Shown here piece after piece: positions 3,855 through 51,359 of a stretch of 64,000 nucleotides of DNA; position 1 is the first letter of the stretch, and each line of letters opens with the position of its first letter. The notes beneath the pieces are model-generated. The model saw nothing but the letters and a program-made list of their open reading frames with translations. It was not told where the DNA came from and searched no databases. Source of the stretch: a virus; the IMG/VR virus record IMGVR_UViG_3300046534_001374, positions 64,001-128,000 of that record. One strand, given 5' to 3'. A program made the translations under genes and the position numbers.

Positions 3855-3938
3855 ATCCAACAAGACGTGAGAGAGCGACGATCTGCCGCTAGTAAAGTTT
3901 ATGGTTATATTAGATCGCGTTTTAATTCTGCGTTCATA
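3855..3938 (+). repeat. Solitary short attC-like element related to the 47.5-50.4 kb array
   Basis: ATCCAAC-aagac-gtgagagagcgacgatct...tagatcgcgttttaattc-tgc-GTTCATA. It shares the left arm and part of the loop with the array repeats and lies in a divergent intergenic region. Confidence 0.75.
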
Positions 3939-3976: not shown

Positions 3977-4801
3977 ATGGCAAAAAAAGAATCTGAAAAG
4001 TTCACCTCAATTATTGAATCACTTAAAAAGATTAACGATTCTAAGAGAATTAGTTTTAAACTACCGTCCTCTAAGATCGAGGTTGAATTAAATCCACTAC
4101 AAGCAAAGCACATTTCACAAATCAACAGTTCGTTTATGGCTGGTGGTAGTGACGGAACCTTTGCGGCTAGCTTTATCGGTTTATTGAAGAGGTTACTAAC
4201 TGATGTATTGATTCTTCCTGAAGGAAATACCTTCAAAGATTTTGATACTATTGATATGCATTATATCTTGTTCAAAATGAGAGAACTGATCGATCCGATT
4301 TTTAATATAAAATCTGGTGATGGTGAAAATGATATTGCAATCGATATTAAAAACCATATTAAAAATCTTGATAAACTTAAAAACATCAAAAAAGAAATCA
4401 CTTTCGGTAATACTTCTTGTAAAGTTACATTACAGTTACCTAGCTTCGAACATTACGCCAAGTATAGTAAATTCATCGAGATAGCCCACAAAAGCGCCAG
4501 AGATCAAAAAAAACCTAATTTTGAGAATCTTACCAAGGATGTCTTCTCTTTTAGTATATTAACGTATATCTATAAATTGTCGGTTATTGTCGATAAGGAA
4601 GAACATGAATTTATTTTCTCTGAAGAGACACCAGCGAACCAATCAGAAATTCTTGATCACATACCTAAAGACGAATACTCGGAAATCTTCAAATCTATTT
4701 CCAAATTAACAGAACCTATCCAAAAATGTCTAGAAACAGATGTCGAAGATGTTTCTATTCCTATCGACCATACATTTCTGATTCAGAACATGGATAGTTA
4801 A
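3977..4801 (+). CDS. Baseplate hub assembly protein (gp26-like)
   Basis: 'FKLPSS...L.PL' and 'FDTIDMHYILFKMR' motifs; 274 aa; late motif TAATTA 5 nt upstream. Confidence 0.65.
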   Translation: MAKKESEKFTSIIESLKKINDSKRISFKLPSSKIEVELNPLQAKHISQINSSFMAGGSDGTFAASFIGLLKRLLTDVLILPEGNTFKDFDTIDMHYILFKMRELIDPIFNIKSGDGENDIAIDIKNHIKNLDKLKNIKKEITFGNTSCKVTLQLPSFEHYAKYSKFIEIAHKSARDQKKPNFENLTKDVFSFSILTYIYKLSVIVDKEEHEFIFSEETPANQSEILDHIPKDEYSEIFKSISKLTEPIQKCLETDVEDVSIPIDHTFLIQNMDS

Positions 4802-8764: not shown

Positions 8765-9535
8765 TTAAAAACTAGCATAAGCGGGTGGGGTTTTACGGGT
8801 TCTTTCGTTATACTCTCTCTCCATTTCCTCAAAATCCTCAAATTTCTTAACAATAAATTTGACGATTTCGGATCTCACGATATCGTCGGAGGTTAATTGG
8901 AAGAAATTAATGCCCTTATCCACACATTCGGGTGTATCGAAAATTTGTTTGGCTGTCTCTAGGCCCGACCCTTTAATGTCGGACTGTTGGCTATCGCCAC
9001 ACATGATCAATTTCGAACCCTTACCGATACGAGTCATAAGGGTTTTCACTTCATCTATACTGAAATTTTGGATTTCATCAGCAATTACATAATGATCTAC
9101 CCAATTTTGGCCTCTTAGGAAATTTATAGGAGCCGCCTTCAACGGAAGTCCAGACCTAGACCCTACCTCAACTATCTCTTCTACCTTAGAGTCTAGGATA
9201 GCCTTATAATTGGAAAACTTGGCATTTTCGTCACCAGCTAAATATCCCATAGATTTAGACGCACTTTCAATGACCGTTCGTAGATATAAAATATCTTTAA
9301 AATCTTGTTCTTGGTATGCTTTCAGTGCTGCATAGACCGATAGATAACTTTTCCCTACTCCGGCTGGGCCGTCAATTATTACAATTTTAACAGTGTCGTC
9401 CAACATAGCATGTAAAATTTCTCGTTGGTTTTTCGAAAACTTAAAATCCCTTTTATTGAAGGCTATCTTTGTTACCGATGAATTTTTAGATAAAGCTTGA
9501 TTAATATCCGTTACGGATAAGTTATTATTTGACAT
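8765..9535 (-). CDS. phoH: PhoH-family ATPase
   Basis: GPAGVGKS, FLRGQ, DEIQN, TRIG, GDSQQSD and DIVRS motifs. Confidence 0.95.
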   Translation of the reverse strand: MSNNNLSVTDINQALSKNSSVTKIAFNKRDFKFSKNQREILHAMLDDTVKIVIIDGPAGVGKSYLSVYAALKAYQEQDFKDILYLRTVIESASKSMGYLAGDENAKFSNYKAILDSKVEEIVEVGSRSGLPLKAAPINFLRGQNWVDHYVIADEIQNFSIDEVKTLMTRIGKGSKLIMCGDSQQSDIKGSGLETAKQIFDTPECVDKGINFFQLTSDDIVRSEIVKFIVKKFEDFEEMEREYNERTRKTPPAYASF

Positions 9536-9627
9536 CTAAATTTAATTATACCTCACAAACATAAATTCAATCAAACCTATTAAATTAATTTGGGTTGCAA
9601 TAAATTGATTAGTTCATAATTAAATAT

Positions 9628-10776
9628 ATGAAGCAAAAATATACTAAAGAAGTGATAAAATCTATAGCCGGAAAATACACATCGAAAAAGGAATTTATAG
9701 CTAATGATCCTAATGTTTATGGATATATGCGGCGTAAAGGTGAAGATTTTTCTAAAGAAGCTTGTGCTCATATGACACAGCTTAGAAGGAAACATACTGA
9801 CGAATCATTGAAAGATATAGCCAAAGAATTTATGTCCCGAACAGAATTACAAAGGGGTGATGCCTCGGCTTACAGTTGTATTAGAAAAAAAGGTAAACAA
9901 TTCATGAACGAGGCATGTGAACATATGATTCAAGGTAGATTTTCTATAGCACAACTAATGTGTAAAAAGATATTTGAAAATATACTTGATAGTGTTTGTG
10001 TGTATGATACCCGAAAAGTTATTACTCCCTATGAAATTGATATATGGTTTAAAGAGTTTAATTTGGCAATAGAGTATAATGGAAAATTTTGGCATGCCAA
10101 AGAATGTGCAATAAGAAGAGATGCTATTAAAAAGAAAATTTGTGAAGATAGAGGTATACACTTAATAACCATATACGAAGGGGTCAAAGATTACGAGACC
10201 GAAGTTAGGCATAAAATAATAGAAATATTACCACTTATTAATAATATTACCAAAAAACAAATAACTACACAAAATGTTTTAGATGTCGATTGTTCGACAA
10301 TATGGGATGATATACTGAAGAGTAATAGTATTGACGAAATCAATAAGAAAATAAAAAAATGTAAAAACATAAAAGAATTCAAAGAAAAACATTATACCAA
10401 TTATAAATATATCCACAAAAGTGGAAATACAGATATGTTAGACTGTATCAGAGAAAAAGAAAATGAAAATTTGAGTGATGTAGAACTTATGCGGAAATGT
10501 TCAGAAATAACCCATTATGCTAAATTTATAACAGATCATAAAAATTTATACACAATTACCCACAGACGGGGATTATTAGATTCTGTAGCCAAAAATATGA
10601 TTCTCACCAATAGAAGATATAGATTTCATAAACATGAAGATATTATTAATCTGGCGGGAGAATATAAAAATAAGTCTTCTATTGAAAAGGGTGACTGTGC
10701 TTTGTTTAAAGAAATTAACAAAAGAGAAGATATTTCTTGGAGTGACATCTTATTTTTAGCGAAAAGAAAATTCTAA
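9628..10776 (+). CDS. Putative homing endonuclease (PD-(D/E)XK/Vsr-like core with repeated DNA-binding modules)
   Basis: 'EIDIWF...LAIEYNGKFWH' nuclease core plus repeated 'KY..K.EF...D..AY..R.G...C.HM' modules. Very AT-rich and opposite in strand to the flanking block. Confidence 0.7.
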   Translation: MKQKYTKEVIKSIAGKYTSKKEFIANDPNVYGYMRRKGEDFSKEACAHMTQLRRKHTDESLKDIAKEFMSRTELQRGDASAYSCIRKKGKQFMNEACEHMIQGRFSIAQLMCKKIFENILDSVCVYDTRKVITPYEIDIWFKEFNLAIEYNGKFWHAKECAIRRDAIKKKICEDRGIHLITIYEGVKDYETEVRHKIIEILPLINNITKKQITTQNVLDVDCSTIWDDILKSNSIDEINKKIKKCKNIKEFKEKHYTNYKYIHKSGNTDMLDCIREKENENLSDVELMRKCSEITHYAKFITDHKNLYTITHRRGLLDSVAKNMILTNRRYRFHKHEDIINLAGEYKNKSSIEKGDCALFKEINKREDISWSDILFLAKRKF

Positions 10777-45846: not shown

Positions 45847-46947
45847 TTAAGTTATTGGTGTTTCCAATCTGGTGTCTAAATCGGCAATAGCTGCATCTAG
45901 TTGTTTAGCCCACGCCTTTTCAGCAGCAATGATATTAGTCGTATCACTAGACCCACCGGATAACGGAGGTTTTGAATTGTTGCTTGCATTGTTCTCGGTT
46001 TTATTGATCTTGTCTCCGAGTATATCAACAAATGCGGTTTCTCGACCGATAGAAATATTTAAAGGTTCGTTGGAAACGCTATATTCATGACACATAGGAT
46101 ATAGATTGTTAATCTTTTTAACCAGATCCCCGTATTGTTGGAATAGAATTCCTAGATATTTTTTTCTGTTATCCAAAACATCCAAGAAGCTAAAAGTATC
46201 TTGTGCTAAATTATATAGATGCGCCAAAGGTTCGTCCATAATATTAAATATTTTACCATATGTGCATTTAGGTAAAACTCTCGAACCTAGTCTTTGGAAT
46301 AGTCTGATATTGTCGTGGAAGTTTTCAGCATATTCAGGTAGCATACGAATCCATGTGTGTTGTCCTAGAACACTACTAAGTCCTGTGCTGTCCAATACAT
46401 TACCTATAATACCGTCAACCATATTTATTGCATTGTCAGGAATTATGATGTTAGAATAGATCGTTCCTAGAGCTTCTGAAACTTCCGTAAACAACGGCAT
46501 CTTATTCAGACTAGAGGTTATAGCCGTTCTAACACCATCAGGTAGGAGTATATCTACATTTTTAAGGTAACCACGCAAAAGAGTTGCAGACACATCCTGA
46601 AGAGTAATGTCCCCGATAAGATCGCCCAGCTCACTCACATCCTTTACAATACGCTGTATACCTATAACCGTATTTTCAATCTCCAAAATTGAGGATCTAA
46701 ATCCCTCATCTCTACCGAATAGGTTTTTAGTGAATGATACTAATTCTGTGCTTGGACCCCTATAAGGCCCGTGCAGCTTCGCAACTTTGGCTACAGAATC
46801 CTCAACACTACCAACGGATTGATTTATGAGAGAAATGTTATCAAAAACTTTACGTGTTTTGTAACCATCTCGACTCGGCATTTGGGACTCTAAATATTCG
46901 CGACCAACAATCTCTGCTGCGGCGATGGGGTTACAAATATTACTCAC
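45847..46947 (-). CDS. Hypothetical late (virion) protein
   Basis: 366 aa; TAAGTA 6 nt upstream of the GTG. Confidence 0.65.
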   Translation of the reverse strand: MSNICNPIAAAEIVGREYLESQMPSRDGYKTRKVFDNISLINQSVGSVEDSVAKVAKLHGPYRGPSTELVSFTKNLFGRDEGFRSSILEIENTVIGIQRIVKDVSELGDLIGDITLQDVSATLLRGYLKNVDILLPDGVRTAITSSLNKMPLFTEVSEALGTIYSNIIIPDNAINMVDGIIGNVLDSTGLSSVLGQHTWIRMLPEYAENFHDNIRLFQRLGSRVLPKCTYGKIFNIMDEPLAHLYNLAQDTFSFLDVLDNRKKYLGILFQQYGDLVKKINNLYPMCHEYSVSNEPLNISIGRETAFVDILGDKINKTENNASNNSKPPLSGGSSDTTNIIAAEKAWAKQLDAAIADLDTRLETPIT

Positions 46948-46991
46948 TGAATTTACTTATGTTGTGGGTTTGTTATTACTAAGTATAACAT

Positions 46992-47249
46992 ATGAAAACA
47001 ACGATTGCGGCTATTTTTGTTAACCTGCTAAAATTCCTAGCTGCTCGCGAATTAAATTCGAACGTTAGAACAATCATAGAACTCTATAATGAAGAAGAAA
47101 AACTTATATCAAAAATTAGCGAAGCTCACGGGTCTCTCGATTTTAGCCCTGATGGTTCTTACATCTTGCAACTCAAGCATAGGCTTGAAGCCAATAGAAA
47201 CATCATCAAACTTCTCGAAGCCAAAACGCTTCCAAGTTCCAGCGAATAG
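46992..47249 (+). CDS. Putative i-spanin (Rz-like)
   Basis: Weakly hydrophobic N-terminus plus coiled coil; overlapped by a lipoprotein gene in the +1 frame; TAAGTA late motif. Confidence 0.5.
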   Translation: MKTTIAAIFVNLLKFLAARELNSNVRTIIELYNEEEKLISKISEAHGSLDFSPDGSYILQLKHRLEANRNIIKLLEAKTLPSSSE

Positions 47250-47352
47250 TAAAGTGGTATTTAAAGGGAAGGTATTCACATTACCCGAAGATACCGATGT
47301 TGTTACTTTGGAACAACACAAAGAAGAGGTAACTAGATTACTAATAGATTAA
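47089..47352 (+). CDS. Putative o-spanin lipoprotein (Rz1-like)
   Basis: Basic N-terminus, hydrophobic stretch and LTSC lipobox; overlaps the previous gene. Confidence 0.6.
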   Translation: MKKKNLYQKLAKLTGLSILALMVLTSCNSSIGLKPIETSSNFSKPKRFQVPANSKVVFKGKVFTLPEDTDVVTLEQHKEEVTRLLID

Positions 47353-47525
47353 CCTTCTAGTAATTGCTTTTCTCCATCCGGTTCGATGCTTTCTTCTATT
47401 TTTAGTTGGTCCAAGTTTTTGAGAATTAAGATAGGGTATTCAACCCATCTATGAGGGGCATCATTGAGAAGATCGATTAATTGGGTTAATTTAGATTCCT
47501 CAATAACAAATAATTTTTCATCCAT
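47349..47525 (-). CDS. Small hypothetical late protein
   Basis: Start reassigned to MDEKLF, 5 nt after TAATTA. Confidence 0.55.
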   Translation of the reverse strand: MDEKLFVIEESKLTQLIDLLNDAPHRWVEYPILILKNLDQLKIEESIEPDGEKQLLEG

Positions 47526-47564
47526 ATTTTTAATTATCGGGAGATTGGTTTTAAACAATTATTT

Positions 47565-47683
47565 TATGAACGTCAAAGTGGAGGCGCGATCTAAACCGAA
47601 CTCCGTTCGGGATTAAAACGCGATCTAATATAAAACTCAACTAAGTTAGCGGTAGATCGTCGCTCTCCCACGCCTTGTTGTCT
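47565..47683 (-). repeat. attC site F (last in array)
   Basis: Top strand: AGACAAC-aaggc-gtg[g]gag[a]gcg[a]cgatcta...tagatcgcgcctccac-tttgac-GTTCATA. Confidence 0.88.
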
Positions 47684-47730
47684 CTTCAAGTAAAACTTGA
47701 ACTATTGATTTCGACATCTAATTAAATGTG

Positions 47731-47928
47731 ATGAAAAGTAAAATCAAAGCATGGTGGGAAACATTTTGGTTCAAATATGTCCCTGCTTCTACAAGTCAAG
47801 TGTTGTCGTGGCAGAGTAAACAGCGCGAGGAGCTGAATCGTCGGGATGCGGAGCGATATTACAATCGTCAAAATATGAAGAATAATCAACAAAAGCAGAA
47901 AGACGGTCCTGAAAATCACGAAGGATAG
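47731..47928 (+). CDS. Cassette 5 antisense ORF
   Basis: TAATTA at 47719-24, 6 nt before the ATG. Confidence 0.5.
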   Translation: MKSKIKAWWETFWFKYVPASTSQVLSWQSKQREELNRRDAERYYNRQNMKNNQQKQKDGPENHEG

Positions 47929-48106
47929 CCTCCAATTCACCACTAATAAAAGATTCTTCTATTACTTCTCCGTTTGGTTGAAAAGTTTTTCCACTGAATT
48001 TCTCATCATACGATTCATCTGAGAGTTTCTCCTTGATCACAATCCTAACGGATGATAAGTTGGAAAACGTGTAATCTAATTCGTGGTGTTTTGAGAATCT
48101 ATTCAT
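47789..48106 (-). CDS. Cassette 5 ORF (hypothetical)
   Basis: ATG 16 nt after the G of GTTGTCT. Confidence 0.5.
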   Translation of the reverse strand: MNRFSKHHELDYTFSNLSSVRIVIKEKLSDESYDEKFSGKTFQPNGEVIEESFISGELEAILRDFQDRLSAFVDYSSYFDDCNIAPHPDDSAPRAVYSATTTLDL

Positions 48107-48115
48107 GATTTTCTA

Positions 48116-48247
48116 AGACAACGATGGAGCATATCTAATCAATACCAATTTCAATATGAATACAAAAAATAATAAACAAACAACTAATGACTCCTCCAAA
48201 ACCAACCAAGGTAGCGGTAGTGAGTTAGATACTGCGCCTTGTTCACC
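48116..48247 (-). repeat. attC site E (divergent sequence family)
   Basis: Top strand: GGTGAAC-aaggc-gca[g]tatctaa[c]tc...gattagatatgc-tccatc-GTTGTCT. Confidence 0.82.
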
Positions 48248-48515
48248 TCTCCGTCTTTTTGATCTGACTAAGACAACACCAGAAATGGTTGAACAAGAAT
48301 CAAATTACGAATCCCCTACTTTGAAGCAGAAACAACTAGCTCTGAAAAAAGAGGTATATCCAGATCAATCCCCGCAAGCTCTATCAAAGAGTTATCAAGA
48401 CGCTCTTGAGCTTGGTTACGTGAAACCTCAGAATCCCAATTTTGATTGGGAACCTTATAAAGATTTGGTTTGTAGATTGGTAAATTCCGAAGATCAGATT
48501 TCAGCTTCGGTATAA
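48156..48515 (+). CDS. Cassette 4 antisense ORF starting inside attC E
   Basis: ATG in the attC loop; reads through the arm as SELDTAPCSP. Confidence 0.45.
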   Translation: MNTKNNKQTTNDSSKTNQGSGSELDTAPCSPLRLFDLTKTTPEMVEQESNYESPTLKQKQLALKKEVYPDQSPQALSKSYQDALELGYVKPQNPNFDWEPYKDLVCRLVNSEDQISASV

Positions 48516-48591
48516 TATATTGAAGCTGTTTCTTCCTGTGGTGTAATGATTCTAGTATTTCTAGGCATTGTGCTTTTGTTGGATCGGGCAT
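48316..48591 (-). CDS. Cassette 4 ORF (hypothetical)
   Basis: ATG 19 nt after the G of GTTCACC; AGGA upstream. Confidence 0.5.
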   Translation of the reverse strand: MPDPTKAQCLEILESLHHRKKQLQYIIPKLKSDLRNLPIYKPNLYKVPNQNWDSEVSRNQAQERLDNSLIELAGIDLDIPLFSELVVSASK

Positions 48592-48603
48592 GTCCTATTT
48601 CTA

Positions 48604-48722
48604 GGTGAACGTCAATGTGGAGGCGCGATCTAAACCGAACTCCGTTCGGGATTAAAACGCGATCTAATATAAAAATAAACTAAGTTAGCGGTAGATCGTC
48701 GCTCTCTCACGTCTTGTTAGCC
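48604..48722 (-). repeat. attC site D
   Basis: GGCTAAC ... GTTCACC, with 3 extrahelical bases. Confidence 0.88.
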
Positions 48723-48752
48723 CTTCAAATGGTTTTAGGGATAAATATAAGC

Positions 48753-48947
48753 ATGAGAAAACCAAACAGCCCACTAAGAACAATGGATAAGCTCCTTAAG
48801 CCATACATGCAGGAAATAAAAAATCCCGATAGCTGTGATGATCTACTAAATTATTTTGCAGATTGTATGGATGAATGGTGGAATAATCTAGATGCACGAA
48901 ATAAAGAATGCCCCCTTCCCCGAAAAGCTAATCTAGAGAAAATATAG
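48753..48947 (+). CDS. Cassette 3 antisense ORF
   Basis: TAAATA at 48742-47, 5 nt before the ATG. Confidence 0.5.
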   Translation: MRKPNSPLRTMDKLLKPYMQEIKNPDSCDDLLNYFADCMDEWWNNLDARNKECPLPRKANLEKI

Positions 48948-49164
48948 TTCCGTCAGTTTCAATTCGTTTGGCAAAATCTTGTATCTTATCTTTATCTTTC
49001 AGTGAATTTAGAGCTACTTCAATCTGAGAAGCCGTTAGATTCCCTTTTTCTTGTTCAGTGATATGCCATTCTCCAAAATCTTCAGAGTTTATTTTCTTTA
49101 AGATTTCGGTTTCCAGTTCTCTTTTTGGGTTTAGTCTAAGATTATAGTTATTTGGTTCTGACAT
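48928..49164 (-). CDS. Cassette 3 ORF (hypothetical)
   Basis: ATG 24 nt after the G of GTTAGCC. Confidence 0.55.
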   Translation of the reverse strand: MSEPNNYNLRLNPKRELETEILKKINSEDFGEWHITEQEKGNLTASQIEVALNSLKDKDKIQDFAKRIETDGTIFSLD

Positions 49165-49181
49165 GATTTCTTAGATTCTCG

Positions 49182-49299
49182 GGCTAACGTCAATGTGGAG
49201 GCGCGATCTAAACCGAACTCCGTTCGGAATTAAAACGCGATAATACATAAACATAACTAAGCTAGCGGTAGATCGTCGCCCTCTCACGCCTTGTTCTGC
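49182..49299 (-). repeat. attC site C
   Basis: GCAGAAC ... GTTAGCC. Confidence 0.88.
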
Positions 49300-49319
49300 A
49301 TCTGGGCCTAAGTATGAAT

Positions 49320-49670
49320 ATGACCTATGAACAAGAACGAATCCTAATAAACCAAACAATCCAAGATTACCTAAATTCATGGCATCATCGCATCTGGACC
49401 CAAGCGATCACTCAACTTGACCTGTCAGTTCCAAATACCCCCTTTCGTCTTGTGAGATTTGAACTAGGGCGACTTCTTCTTGTTTTATCTCACCTTGTGT
49501 TTGTCGGTTCCCATCTAAAAGACAGAGTGCTTCAAACATTCGGTGCTGGGGAAAAATTTGACACCTTACAAGGTCCAGTGGCAACATTAGGTTTTCGAGA
49601 TCAGTTCTCAGACTATACCAAAATCTACCGACATAAGATCCACCACGAAGATCAAAATCGTTGCAAATGA
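49320..49670 (+). CDS. Cassette 2 antisense ORF
   Basis: TAAGTA at 49309-14, 5 nt before the ATG. Confidence 0.45.
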   Translation: MTYEQERILINQTIQDYLNSWHHRIWTQAITQLDLSVPNTPFRLVRFELGRLLLVLSHLVFVGSHLKDRVLQTFGAGEKFDTLQGPVATLGFRDQFSDYTKIYRHKIHHEDQNRCK

Positions 49671-49782
49671 AAATAATCCTTTCGGAGCTTTGATATACCA
49701 TTTTCGCATCAAGAAAATTACTTAGATCAAGTTCTTCGTCGGGATCACTATAATACAGTCTAAAATATGTAGGTTTACTCAT
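49408..49782 (-). CDS. Cassette 2 ORF (hypothetical)
   Basis: ATG 23 nt after the G of GTTCTGC. Confidence 0.5.
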   Translation of the reverse strand: MSKPTYFRLYYSDPDEELDLSNFLDAKMVYQSSERIIFICNDFDLRGGSYVGRFWYSLRTDLENLMLPLDLVRCQIFPQHRMFEALCLLDGNRQTQGEIKQEEVALVQISQDERGYLELTGQVE

Positions 49783-49798
49783 GGATTCTTAGTTTCTA

Positions 49799-49917
49799 GC
49801 AGAACGTCAATGTGGAGGCGCGATCTAAACCGAACGTAGTTCGGGATTAAAACGCGATCTAATATAAAAATAAACTAAGTTAGCGGTAGATCGTCGTCCT
49901 CCCACGTCTTGTTCTGC
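49799..49917 (-). repeat. attC site B
   Basis: GCAGAAC-aagac-gtg[g]gagg[a]cg[a]cgatcta...tagatcgcgcctccac-attgac-GTTCTGC. Confidence 0.88.
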
Positions 49918-49958
49918 ATCTGGATTTGAAAAGTTTGATGTGATTACTAATTAAAGTA

Positions 49959-50108
49959 ATGAACGAACAAAAAACTTTGGTGTATGATGGTGAACTAACT
50001 CTAGACGAAGCCAGAAACAAAATCAGAAACAAAGATGGTTCAAAACTTACGGATGCGGAGTTTGTTGAATTATTCCAACCCTTTACCAAGGAAGCTTCTC
50101 GTCCCTAA
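49959..50108 (+). CDS. Cassette 1 antisense ORF (49 aa, not in ORF track)
   Basis: MNEQKTLVYDGELTLDEARNK...EASRP*; TAATTA at 49948-53, 5 nt before the ATG. Confidence 0.5.
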   Translation: MNEQKTLVYDGELTLDEARNKIRNKDGSKLTDAEFVELFQPFTKEASRP

Positions 50109-50271
50109 TTTCAATATTGTTTAAAATCACAAGCGGTAACCCCTCATTTGTTCGTTTAGTAATTTTAGATTGTTTCTCACACCACTCCATTTCTGATTGA
50201 TTTGGTGTTTGGAATGACCAAATATAATATTCTGGTCCTTGTGAGTTGGTTACGGTGTATTGCTGGATCAT
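50083..50271 (-). CDS. Cassette 1 ORF (hypothetical)
   Basis: ATG 30 nt after the G of GTTCTGC. Confidence 0.5.
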   Translation of the reverse strand: MIQQYTVTNSQGPEYYIWSFQTPNQSEMEWCEKQSKITKRTNEGLPLVILNNIEIRDEKLPW

Positions 50272-50294
50272 AATTATCTAGTAGGTAATTTATT

Positions 50295-50413
50295 GCAGAA
50301 CGTCAATGTGGAGGCGCGATCTAAACCGAACTCCGTTCGGAATTGAAACGCGATCTGATATAAAAATAAACTAAGCTAGCGGTAGAACGTCACTCTCTCA
50401 CGTCTTATTAATA
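50295..50413 (-). repeat. attC site A (first in array, R'' decayed)
   Basis: R'' reads TATTAAT (AAC lost), with extra mismatches in the arm; R' GTTCTGC is intact. Confidence 0.8.
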
Positions 50414-50456
50414 ATATAAAACTTGAAAAGAGGAATTTTTATAGTAATCTCATCTT

Positions 50457-51359
50457 ATGAAGAACATCCTAATAGATGCCAACAATATGCTACACAGGAG
50501 CATAGGCAACACCGAGAAGTATCTAGAAAAAAATTCGAGAGCAACTAGAAAGCTGGACAATAAAGGAAACGATGTCACTGCTTTGCAGAAGTTTTTTTCG
50601 GATATATACTATACCTCCTCAGATTTTCTTGATGCAGACACAGAAATTTATATGGTGTGGGATAGGAAGATCGACCCAGAAGCGATCAACTGGAGAACCA
50701 CAGTTAACCCACTTTATAAAGCAAACAGAGGATCTATAGATACTAATGGTCCGAAGAAGCAAGTGTATAGCCTATGTAAACATGCCAAATATATAGCAGA
50801 TGCCTACGGGTTTCATTCAGTATTTCCCCTCTGCTCCGAAGCAGACGACCTAATACATTATCTCAATAAAAACCTAGAAGGCGGTAGTTTGATTATTTCT
50901 TCCGACCATGACTTCTTCCAATGTATATCTGAGGATTGCAGTATTTATAACCCCCAGAAAAGAATGCTTCTGGAACTTGATAACTGGGATGAATATGCCC
51001 CAGTATCTAAAGAACACTATGTTTTATGGAAATCAATTAAGGGCGACCCCTCTGATAACATCAAAGGGTTGTTCCGTTATGGTGAGAAGAAAGCTAAAAA
51101 GCTGGTCGAGAACTGGGACGAGCTTTCACCTAAACTGACAGAGGAGCAAATAGATATTATTGAGGAAACTAAAAGTTTAATTGATCTTAATTTTAAACCT
51201 TTATCTGATAAAGAGGTGTGCTTCATTAAGAGGCAGATCGAGCCTAAAGAAAAAAAGAAAGATTGGGAATTGACTCGGATTCTGGACAACTACCATGTCA
51301 CCTACAAGACCAGAGAGATGTGGGATAACTTCAACACCCTAAAAGAGTTATATCTATAA
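50457..51359 (+). CDS. rnh: T4-type RNase H / 5'-3' exonuclease
   Basis: IDANN, YKANR, EADD, SSDHDF.Q and GDPSDNIKG motifs. Confidence 0.92.
   Translation: MKNILIDANNMLHRSIGNTEKYLEKNSRATRKLDNKGNDVTALQKFFSDIYYTSSDFLDADTEIYMVWDRKIDPEAINWRTTVNPLYKANRGSIDTNGPKKQVYSLCKHAKYIADAYGFHSVFPLCSEADDLIHYLNKNLEGGSLIISSDHDFFQCISEDCSIYNPQKRMLLELDNWDEYAPVSKEHYVLWKSIKGDPSDNIKGLFRYGEKKAKKLVENWDELSPKLTEEQIDIIEETKSLIDLNFKPLSDKEVCFIKRQIEPKEKKKDWELTRILDNYHVTYKTREMWDNFNTLKELYL

Follow-up and report, generated by a model that had tools for sequence, protein, structure and literature searches.

The cassette array and its genomic position

The DNA considered here, hereafter the window (64,000 nucleotides), corresponds to bases 64001-128000 of the 139,595-bp IMG/VR record IMGVR_UViG_3300046534_001374, which is rated 65% complete. 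The source genome (38.4% GC) is that of a distant T4-like myovirus, with a tail sheath gene of 987 aa, whose product is only ~30% identical to known sheath proteins, a baseplate hub gene of 1232 aa and a gene for an RNase H-like 5'-3' exonuclease. Between this T4 RNase H-like exonuclease gene (50457-51359, plus strand), divergent from the array, and a gene encoding 366 aa (45847-46947, minus strand), which is followed by the baseplate hub gene, an element of 118-132 nt is present six times, in minus-strand orientation. The six copies delimit five units of 488-617 nt and the whole array spans 2.8 kb. They are described below as attC sites A to F and cassettes 1 to 5, in the terms of the integron-type array that we consider the best explanation of the locus. 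Sites A, B, C, D, and F are mutually 84-93% identical, and site E differs in sequence.

Site A (50295-50413, minus strand) comes first; the box that opens it (R'') has decayed to TATTAAT, with AAT in place of AAC, and the box that closes it (R') is GTTCTGC, with its G at 50301. The five cassettes follow on the same strand, each including the site that closes it. Cassette 1 (49805-50300; 496 nt, TTCTGC...G) includes attC B (49917-49799), which has a hybrid R', and carries a forward open reading frame (ORF) of 62 aa (50083-50271, minus strand) and a reverse one of 49 aa (49959-50108, plus strand). Cassette 2 (49188-49804; 617 nt) includes attC C (49299-49182) and a forward ORFan of 124 aa (49408-49782, minus strand), and cassette 3 (48610-49187; 578 nt) includes attC D (48722-48604) and a forward ORF of 78 aa (48928-49164, minus strand). 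Cassette 4 (48122-48609; 488 nt) includes attC E (48247-48116) and a reverse ORF of 119 aa (48156-48515, plus strand), and cassette 5 (47571-48121; 551 nt) includes attC F (47683-47565) and a forward ORF of 105 aa (47789-48106, minus strand). When the cassettes of the phage are compared for paralogy, only short motifs near their ends are found in common; their GC content is 35-40%, as against 38.4% for the phage. The order of the array, together with the flanking phage genes, was recovered at 100% identity in independent assemblies from other samples, namely L048 (46001-49058) and L049 (46001-49807), so it is not an artefact of a single assembly.

The phage has in total ten attC sites at three loci. 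Besides the six sites of the window array, a second mini-array (locus L003, genome positions 9034-10207, outside the window) contains three attCs, two of the long type and one of the type of site E, with two cassettes, beside the start of a minus-strand gene. The tenth site is a truncated remnant (window 3855-3938, plus strand) in which the left arm and the loop are retained and the L'/right arm is lost. It lies between two divergent phage genes (2207-3823, minus strand, and 3977-4801, plus strand) and ends in GTTCATAAA, nine bases also found after site F. Eight of the ten sites (seven complete ones and the remnant) belong to one near-identical long type.

Complementarity of the cassette ends

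A preliminary description of the window, made without database searches, had proposed that the core opening each cassette is the reverse complement of the core starting the attC that closes it. All ten heptamers were found on the minus strand where it had placed them, and each pair is an exact reverse complement: GTTCTGC (50301) with GCAGAAC (49917) for cassette 1, GTTCTGC (49805) with GCAGAAC (49299) for cassette 2, GTTAGCC (49188) with GGCTAAC (48722) for cassette 3, GTTCACC (48610) with GGTGAAC (48247) for cassette 4, and GTTGTCT (48122) with AGACAAC (47683) for cassette 5. Equally, the R'' and R' of one and the same site do not match in C, D, E, and F, as had been noted, and do so only in B. 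The second array of the phage adds two further pairs, GTTGTCT/AGACAAC and GTTCGCT/AGCGAAC, which brings the rule to 7/7; the probability of this by chance is ~(1/256)^5, or ~1e-12, counting only the five distinct 4-nt variable cores.

Such an offset is expected of integron cassettes. Each unit would be a mobile cassette ending in its own attC, and the single-stranded attC would fold into an imperfect hairpin. A tyrosine recombinase of the IntI type would cut inside the conserved GTT/AAC triplet (conventionally G|TT), leaving each integrated cassette with TTNNNN, one half of its own R box, at its start and with its own NNNNAAC...G at its end. The GTTNNNN closing each attC would belong to the next cassette, and R'(n) would therefore pair with R''(n+1) and not with its own R''. 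The final six core-site bases of an integrated attC are part of the cassette that follows, and the inverse core is complementary to the opening of the cassette to which it belongs. This cassette boundary rule, with the crossover between the G and the TT of the core site, is reportedly due to Hall, Brookes and Stokes in 1991 and to Stokes and colleagues in 1997; the pairing described here is the same in principle, found in a phage. The offset pairing is thus the long-known footprint of integron cassettes and no new phenomenon, and the proposal made at the outset, which derives each unit from a former circle opened between G and TT within a self-complementary attC, agrees with the data and coincides with the accepted integron model.

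Geometry and folding of the sites

The sites and their circular forms were folded as single-stranded DNA. From its start, a site consists of NNNNAAC, an AAGRC spacer, GTGGGAGG, a stem and a loop, and the return arm of a stem, CCTCCAC, WTTGAC, and GTTNNNN. In the fold, the R box is followed by a spacer (5x6 nt) that stays unpaired, by an L box whose left arm has one base more, and by two further bulges and a long variable loop. The extra base arises where GTGGGAGG faces CCTCCAC, and the central spacer, AAGAC opposite ATTGAC, is unpaired in the folds, which agrees with the 5-6 nt per arm given for attC sites (PMC5027507). Three unpaired features and their spacing define such sites (Nivina et al., 2016, PMC5027507). 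Here the bulged bases are C, T, and T on the plus strand of the window, i.e., the bottom strand relative to the cassettes; they span 6 bp from first to last and lie at positions 16, 21, and 24 from the 5' end of R'' (in our own numbering), the outermost T of attC sites being expected at 23/24. The first bulge is a C instead of the usual G, as it is in the sites of Verrucomicrobiae discussed below. The bottom strand has the more stable fold in every site. Moreover, with the exception of the AAT in site A, all complete sites have the form NNNNAAC...GTTNNNN, and their length of 118-132 nt falls within the range of attC sites (57-141 bp, with conserved AAC/GTT ends).

Site E and its twin in the second array, G3, have other arm sequences and the same fold, which amounts to compensatory change; in an alignment of 68 Verrucomicrobiae sites, double changes occur at six pairs. 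Closing each cassette in silico, by joining the TTNNNN of its start to the G of its own attC, was the check proposed for the circle model. It restores a perfect R box of 7-8 bp, and the fold of the bottom strand becomes more stable by 2.6-5.2 kcal/mol in C, D, E, F, G2, and G3. The energy of site B does not change on circularisation because this site is already self-complementary.

Cassettes shared with other arrays

The most telling evidence comes from cassettes that are used again in other arrays. Homologous units with other boundaries would have spoken against the circle model, and the opposite was observed: cassette 4 in three contexts and cassette 2 in one switch neighbours inside the GTT, this triplet being the resolution at which the junctions of reused cassettes can be placed. 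Cassette 4 (48609-48122) is present again in L050, L051, and L052 at 98.8-99.4% identity, in three further combinations of neighbours. The similarity starts at G|TTCACC and stops at ...G|TT, after which ATGC or CTAC is found instead of GTCT. The GC content of this cassette is 38%, as against 42-57% for its neighbours in L050 and L051.

In the case of cassette 2, the 3.8 kb that L049 shares with the phage, the 366-aa and hub genes included, are 100% identical, and upstream of the G|TTCTGC of this cassette L049 has a foreign attC. From its sequence, L049 could be either a variant array of the phage or an assembly cross-over through a cassette common to another array; in both cases a second context, bounded at the same point, exists for cassette 2. 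A comparable behaviour is seen for the cassette with an 84-aa ORF in L014, an unrelated cassette of the same attC family. This cassette is found in four contexts (L014, L023, L024, and L025) with different neighbours on both sides, the junctions being G|TTCGTT and ...GACG|TT. Judged by these sequences, at least one cassette, and probably a second, is common to the phage and to bacterial-type arrays of the same sample series, and is delimited at identical points in both.

Related arrays in metagenomes and in Verrucomicrobiae

When metagenome contigs were scanned for the right arm of the attC, eight matched. L012 and L014 contain arrays whose attCs differ in length and sequence and share the same architecture; the pairing rule holds in both (4/4). 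One site of L012 is of the long type of the phage, and the arms of the first site of L014 (attC1) are alike those of attC F at 41/42 positions, as counted by hand from both sequences. Four other contigs (L013, L015, L017, and L018) match in the right arm only, probably by chance or in coding sequence. Homologues of the 395-aa cassette protein of L012 led to a bacterial island that is not an integron (L019), and were uninformative.

The loop motif of L014 and L023 was used to reach the Verrucomicrobiae, namely Luteolibacter sp. AS25 and several metagenome-assembled genomes. These genomes encode integron integrases scoring above the curated cut-off of TIGR02249 (387.8 and 357.2 bits in Luteolibacter), whose genes are divergent from arrays with dozens of 87-nt attCs (>70). 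In these arrays, 40/59 adjacent pairs show an R'(n) exactly complementary to R''(n+1); by way of control, a site matches itself in 8/75 cases, and after shuffling of the pairings the matches average 5.8 and never exceed 15. The rule is thus reproduced in true integrons and is a general property of their arrays, as the accepted crossover between G and TT predicts. A covariance model (R1) was built from the 68 Verrucomicrobiae attC sites; it matches the sites of L014, L023, L011, L050, L051, and L053 with E-values from 1e-17 to 6e-4, those of L014 other than attC1 being at ~1e-17.

A second phage-like genome (contig L053/L054; 40% GC), distantly related and with proteins 40-55% identical to the genes at genome positions 45.4-46.2 kb of the present phage, carries four attCs of four types, among them the long type and the type of site E, and three other cassettes (L053 300-2020 and L054). 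This array lies downstream of the homologue of a gene at 45.4-46.2 kb, a locus at which the present phage has no array.

Other searches concerned the phage itself. BLAST against GenBank phages, with the array and with one repeat, gave no match; exact-pattern scans for attCs of the phage type returned nothing, either from IMG/VR (three patterns) or from the GTDB species genomes (one pattern); no Rfam family matched; and no loci were recovered when relatives were sought with rnh as an anchor.

Two observations can be added on the bacterial and phage sides of this family. On the chromosome of Luteolibacter sp. AS25 (NZ_CP151837.1, ~1.896-1.948 Mb; L027, L030, L036, and L039), two integron integrase genes are found ~27 kb apart, and the array of 87-nt attCs reaches at least 20 kb from one of them, which makes it a large sedentary chromosomal integron. 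In L011 (1017-2036; SXGU01500357.1, also L016), a contig of 60% GC whose ORFs resemble those of Mu-like phages on reading their translations (portal-, transposase-, and MuB-like), three sites beside the portal-like gene match the Verrucomicrobiae attC model with E-values from 2e-7 to 2e-4. L011 may be another phage-borne array of this kind.

Insertion history of the locus

In the relatives L009 and L010, the homologue of the 366-aa protein has 355 aa and is 66% identical (L009), and its gene lies ~560 bp from the exonuclease gene, as against ~3.5 kb in the present phage. The 366-aa gene and the hub gene behind it form the conserved right flank of the insertion. The intergenic stretch of L009 and L010 holds a single convergent ORF pair, which corresponds to the resident, non-cassette pair found downstream of site F (46948-47570, minus strand), and no attC was found at this locus in either relative. 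The convergent pair marks the ancestral state of the locus, and the five cassettes and six sites represent an insertion in this lineage since both relatives are without the array.

A further resemblance concerns the two ends of the array. The decayed R'' region of A (50413-50419) is similar to the complement of the sequence that follows the last crossover at F (47552-47571), with agreement at 10/13 positions by eye in DNA that is AT-rich there; this suggests a single resident attC that received all five cassettes.

Origin of the array and alternative explanations

The array is best explained, with a probability that we put at roughly 0.8, as an integron-type cassette array without an integrase, i.e., a cluster of attC sites lacking integrase (CALIN), lodged in a distant T4-like phage, where it is flanked by the rnh-like gene and by a gene of the baseplate module. 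A complete integron has intI and attI adjacent to its array; here, no match to PF00589 or TIGR02249 was found in the contig and the neighbour of the array is the rnh-like exonuclease gene. A CALIN has at least two attCs and no integrase nearby, which is what is seen at the six window sites and at the three sites at genome positions 9-10.2 kb. The absence of an integrase from the 139.6-kb contig is the reason to speak of a CALIN and not of a complete integron. A host enzyme acting in trans would serve as the recombinase, the host perhaps being a Verrucomicrobiae-like bacterium, and the cassettes would have entered a resident phage attC one by one, which would account for six sites with five cassettes. 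Recent traffic between phage and bacterial arrays would also have taken place.

Several results weigh against this explanation. Neither IntI, nor another tyrosine recombinase, a serine recombinase or a Y1 HUH transposase was found in the 139.6-kb contig, which is ~65% complete. The R boxes fit the consensus RYYYAAC/GTTRRRY loosely (GCAGAAC, GGCTAAC, GGTGAAC, and AGACAAC in part), and only AAC/GTT is strict; bona fide Verrucomicrobiae sites beside IntI have the same kinds of core, GTTCTGC being the commonest. The covariance model R1 scores the window's own sites marginally (E-values 0.07 and 0.22), their loops being ~30 nt longer. A search of 401 sampled Verrucomicrobiota genomes for the long attC type and for cassette 4 found neither and returned only short arm-like matches. 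L049 is possibly an assembly cross-over through a shared cassette and not a true phage variant. Finally, the R'/R'' footprint would equally survive capture en bloc, so that it records history only and is by itself no proof of activity in the phage; the formation of circles during infection by this phage does not follow from it.

The last point leads to the possibility that the array is a passive hitch-hiker, i.e., that pieces of bacterial arrays were captured en bloc by illegitimate or homologous recombination and that the phage inherited the footprint with nothing recombining in it. The contig without integrase and a footprint that is a historical record are what such a capture would leave, and Qi et al. 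(2023, PMC9892861) suggest it for other phage CALINs. We regard it as rather unlikely in the present case. It fits poorly with three separate loci in one phage and with six sites for five cassettes, where the decayed first R'' resembles the complement of the last R' region as if insertion had occurred into a resident site. Nor does it accord with a cassette GC content of 35-40% close to the 38.4% of the phage, when the neighbours in other arrays have 42-57%, or with several cassette ORFs having the codon usage and the start motif of the phage. Furthermore, L049 departs from the phage exactly at the G|TT junction, and in the related phage-like contig L053 both the cassettes and the locus are different. 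A recombinase of the phage's own, possibly a novel one encoded in the ~35% of the genome absent from the record, would explain why the same attC types are found in two divergent phage-like genomes, and the incompleteness of the contig leaves room for it. It is nevertheless improbable, given that none of the three recombinase families searched is present in 139.6 kb and that arrays of the Verrucomicrobiae-integron type, whose known enzyme is IntI, contain sites with almost the same arms.

T4-type phages possess PeSLs (promoter early stem-loop elements), which combine a promoter with a stem-loop terminator and recombine by homology (Arbiol et al., 2010, PMC2839356; Comeau et al., 2014, PMC4122927), and the 120-nt repeats might be regulatory modules of this kind, shuffled through mini-circles by general homologous recombination. 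PeSLs are the natural counterpart among T4-type phages: in both cases repeats flank small ORFans in a T4-like hyperplastic region, here between divergent transcription units, and the proposed shuffling via mini-circles has a documented basis in these phages (PMC2839356, PMC4122927). In contrast to PeSLs, the sites described here lack the recurrent composite of a sigma-70 promoter and a terminator (three promoter-like sites, with 10.9 expected, and two terminator-like ones, none of which is repeated at one position in several repeats) and are exchanged at one defined triplet. Homologous crossovers anywhere in a 120-nt repeat cannot yield cassette-specific complementary 4-mers, and the junctions in five alternative contexts are all inside GTT. 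Moreover, site E retains the fold despite its different sequence, and the same sites occur in arrays of 48-60% GC beside IntI, all of which makes an origin as PeSL-like repeats very improbable. An assembly artefact at the repeats, either a wrong order or a phage/bacterial chimera, is hardly credible: repeats that are 85-95% identical can mislead short-read assemblers, and L049 could itself be a cross-over through a shared cassette, but L048 and L049, which come from other samples, have the same order between phage structural genes at 100% identity, and mis-joins within the repeats would break the pairing rule, not create it.

Comparison with known systems and significance

CALINs in phage genomes, among them those of virulent phages and of a myovirus whose host is unknown, are described by Qi et al. 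(2023, Front Microbiol 14:1091391, PMC9892861), with cargo mostly of unknown function and with phage attCs shown to be substrates of IntI1. The published cases resemble the present one in having at least two attCs with cassettes and no intI. They differ from the present phage with its ten sites at three loci, eight of which are of one near-identical long type as in sedentary chromosomal integrons, and with its cassettes matching the phage in GC content and codon usage; the occurrence of identical cassettes in bacterial-type arrays of the same sample series is apparently unreported in the part of that paper considered (PMC9892861). CALINs of phages being already published, what is added here is a clean multi-locus example and evidence, at the level of sequence, for the sharing of single cassettes with arrays of the bacterial-integron type.

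Sedentary chromosomal integrons, such as the one of Vibrio cholerae with its VCR (Vibrio cholerae repeat) sites and that of Luteolibacter sp. AS25, are similar to the phage arrays in their homogeneous attC family, cassettes of 300-600 bp, three-part unpaired geometry and R'(n)/R''(n+1) rule, as well as in their many ORFan cassettes, some with reverse genes. Unlike them, the phage arrays have no adjacent intI, attI or Pc promoter and are found in the context of a lytic-type T4-like phage, and the loop of the phage attC is ~30 nt longer and of other sequence.

A more far-reaching, tentative reading, to which we give clearly less than even odds, joins these elements: a lytic-type T4-like phage would keep a phage-adapted cassette bank at several loci, some of the cassettes having genes with the start motif of the phage, and use the host integrase during infection for two-way swaps with the chromosomal integron of the host. 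Under two-way exchange, cassette 4, with its 38% GC equal to that of the phage and lying among neighbours of 42-57%, would be an export from phage to bacterium. If this were true, integrons would be a direct interface of gene exchange between virulent phages and their hosts, possibly for genes of defence and counter-defence. Natural evidence for single cassettes passing between a virulent-type phage and bacterial arrays is scarce, and the locus supplies concrete sequences for work on infection-triggered cassette exchange, on the integrase responsible and on the small ORFan cargo. It also points to the Verrucomicrobiae, a little-studied and integron-rich group, as the likely partner, the host itself being possibly Verrucomicrobiae-like.

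Cassette cargo and start signals

Each cassette contains a forward ORF starting 16-30 nt past R' and, in addition, a reverse ORF. By a codon-usage score trained on the long genes of the phage, the reverse 49-aa ORF of cassette 1, the forward 78-aa ORF of cassette 3, the reverse 119-aa ORF of cassette 4 and the forward 105-aa ORF of cassette 5 are gene-like, and the forward 124-aa ORF of cassette 2 is ambiguous. Searches of Pfam, PHROGs, large protein and representative sets and the ESM Atlas assigned the cassette ORFs to no family and gave no homologue outside their own cluster and no usable structural lead.

The 119-aa ORF of cassette 4 begins within the loop of site E and reads outward through R''. 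In both attCs of this type (window 48116-48247 and genome 10076-10207), an ATG followed by ~30 codons is present on the bottom strand (MNTKNNKQTTND...) and continues into two different cassette bodies. The 119-aa ORF and its counterpart at G3 have the N-terminus in common and then diverge; since the codons of the attC are read through R'' into both bodies, it is the attC that encodes the shared N-terminus. A parallel case is found in L014, where a reverse ORF of 238 aa starts in the attC loop.

The 49-aa ORF of cassette 1 has, besides phage-like codon usage, the start motif CTAATTAAA-N3-ATG. The motif CTAATTAAA stands 3-4 nt ahead of the ATG at six gene starts (window 47718, 49947, 3836, and 2210; genome 9510 and 132222), three of which belong to reverse cassette ORFs and three to ORFs outside the arrays, two of the latter matching large phage ORFs. 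The motif might mark gene starts or act as a promoter signal specific to the phage, perhaps with transcripts that are leaderless or nearly so. A different structure is found beside the second array, where a perfect 10-bp hairpin (CGTCAGCCAT...ATGGCTGACG, genome 8981-9010) overlaps the start codon of the adjacent minus-strand gene.

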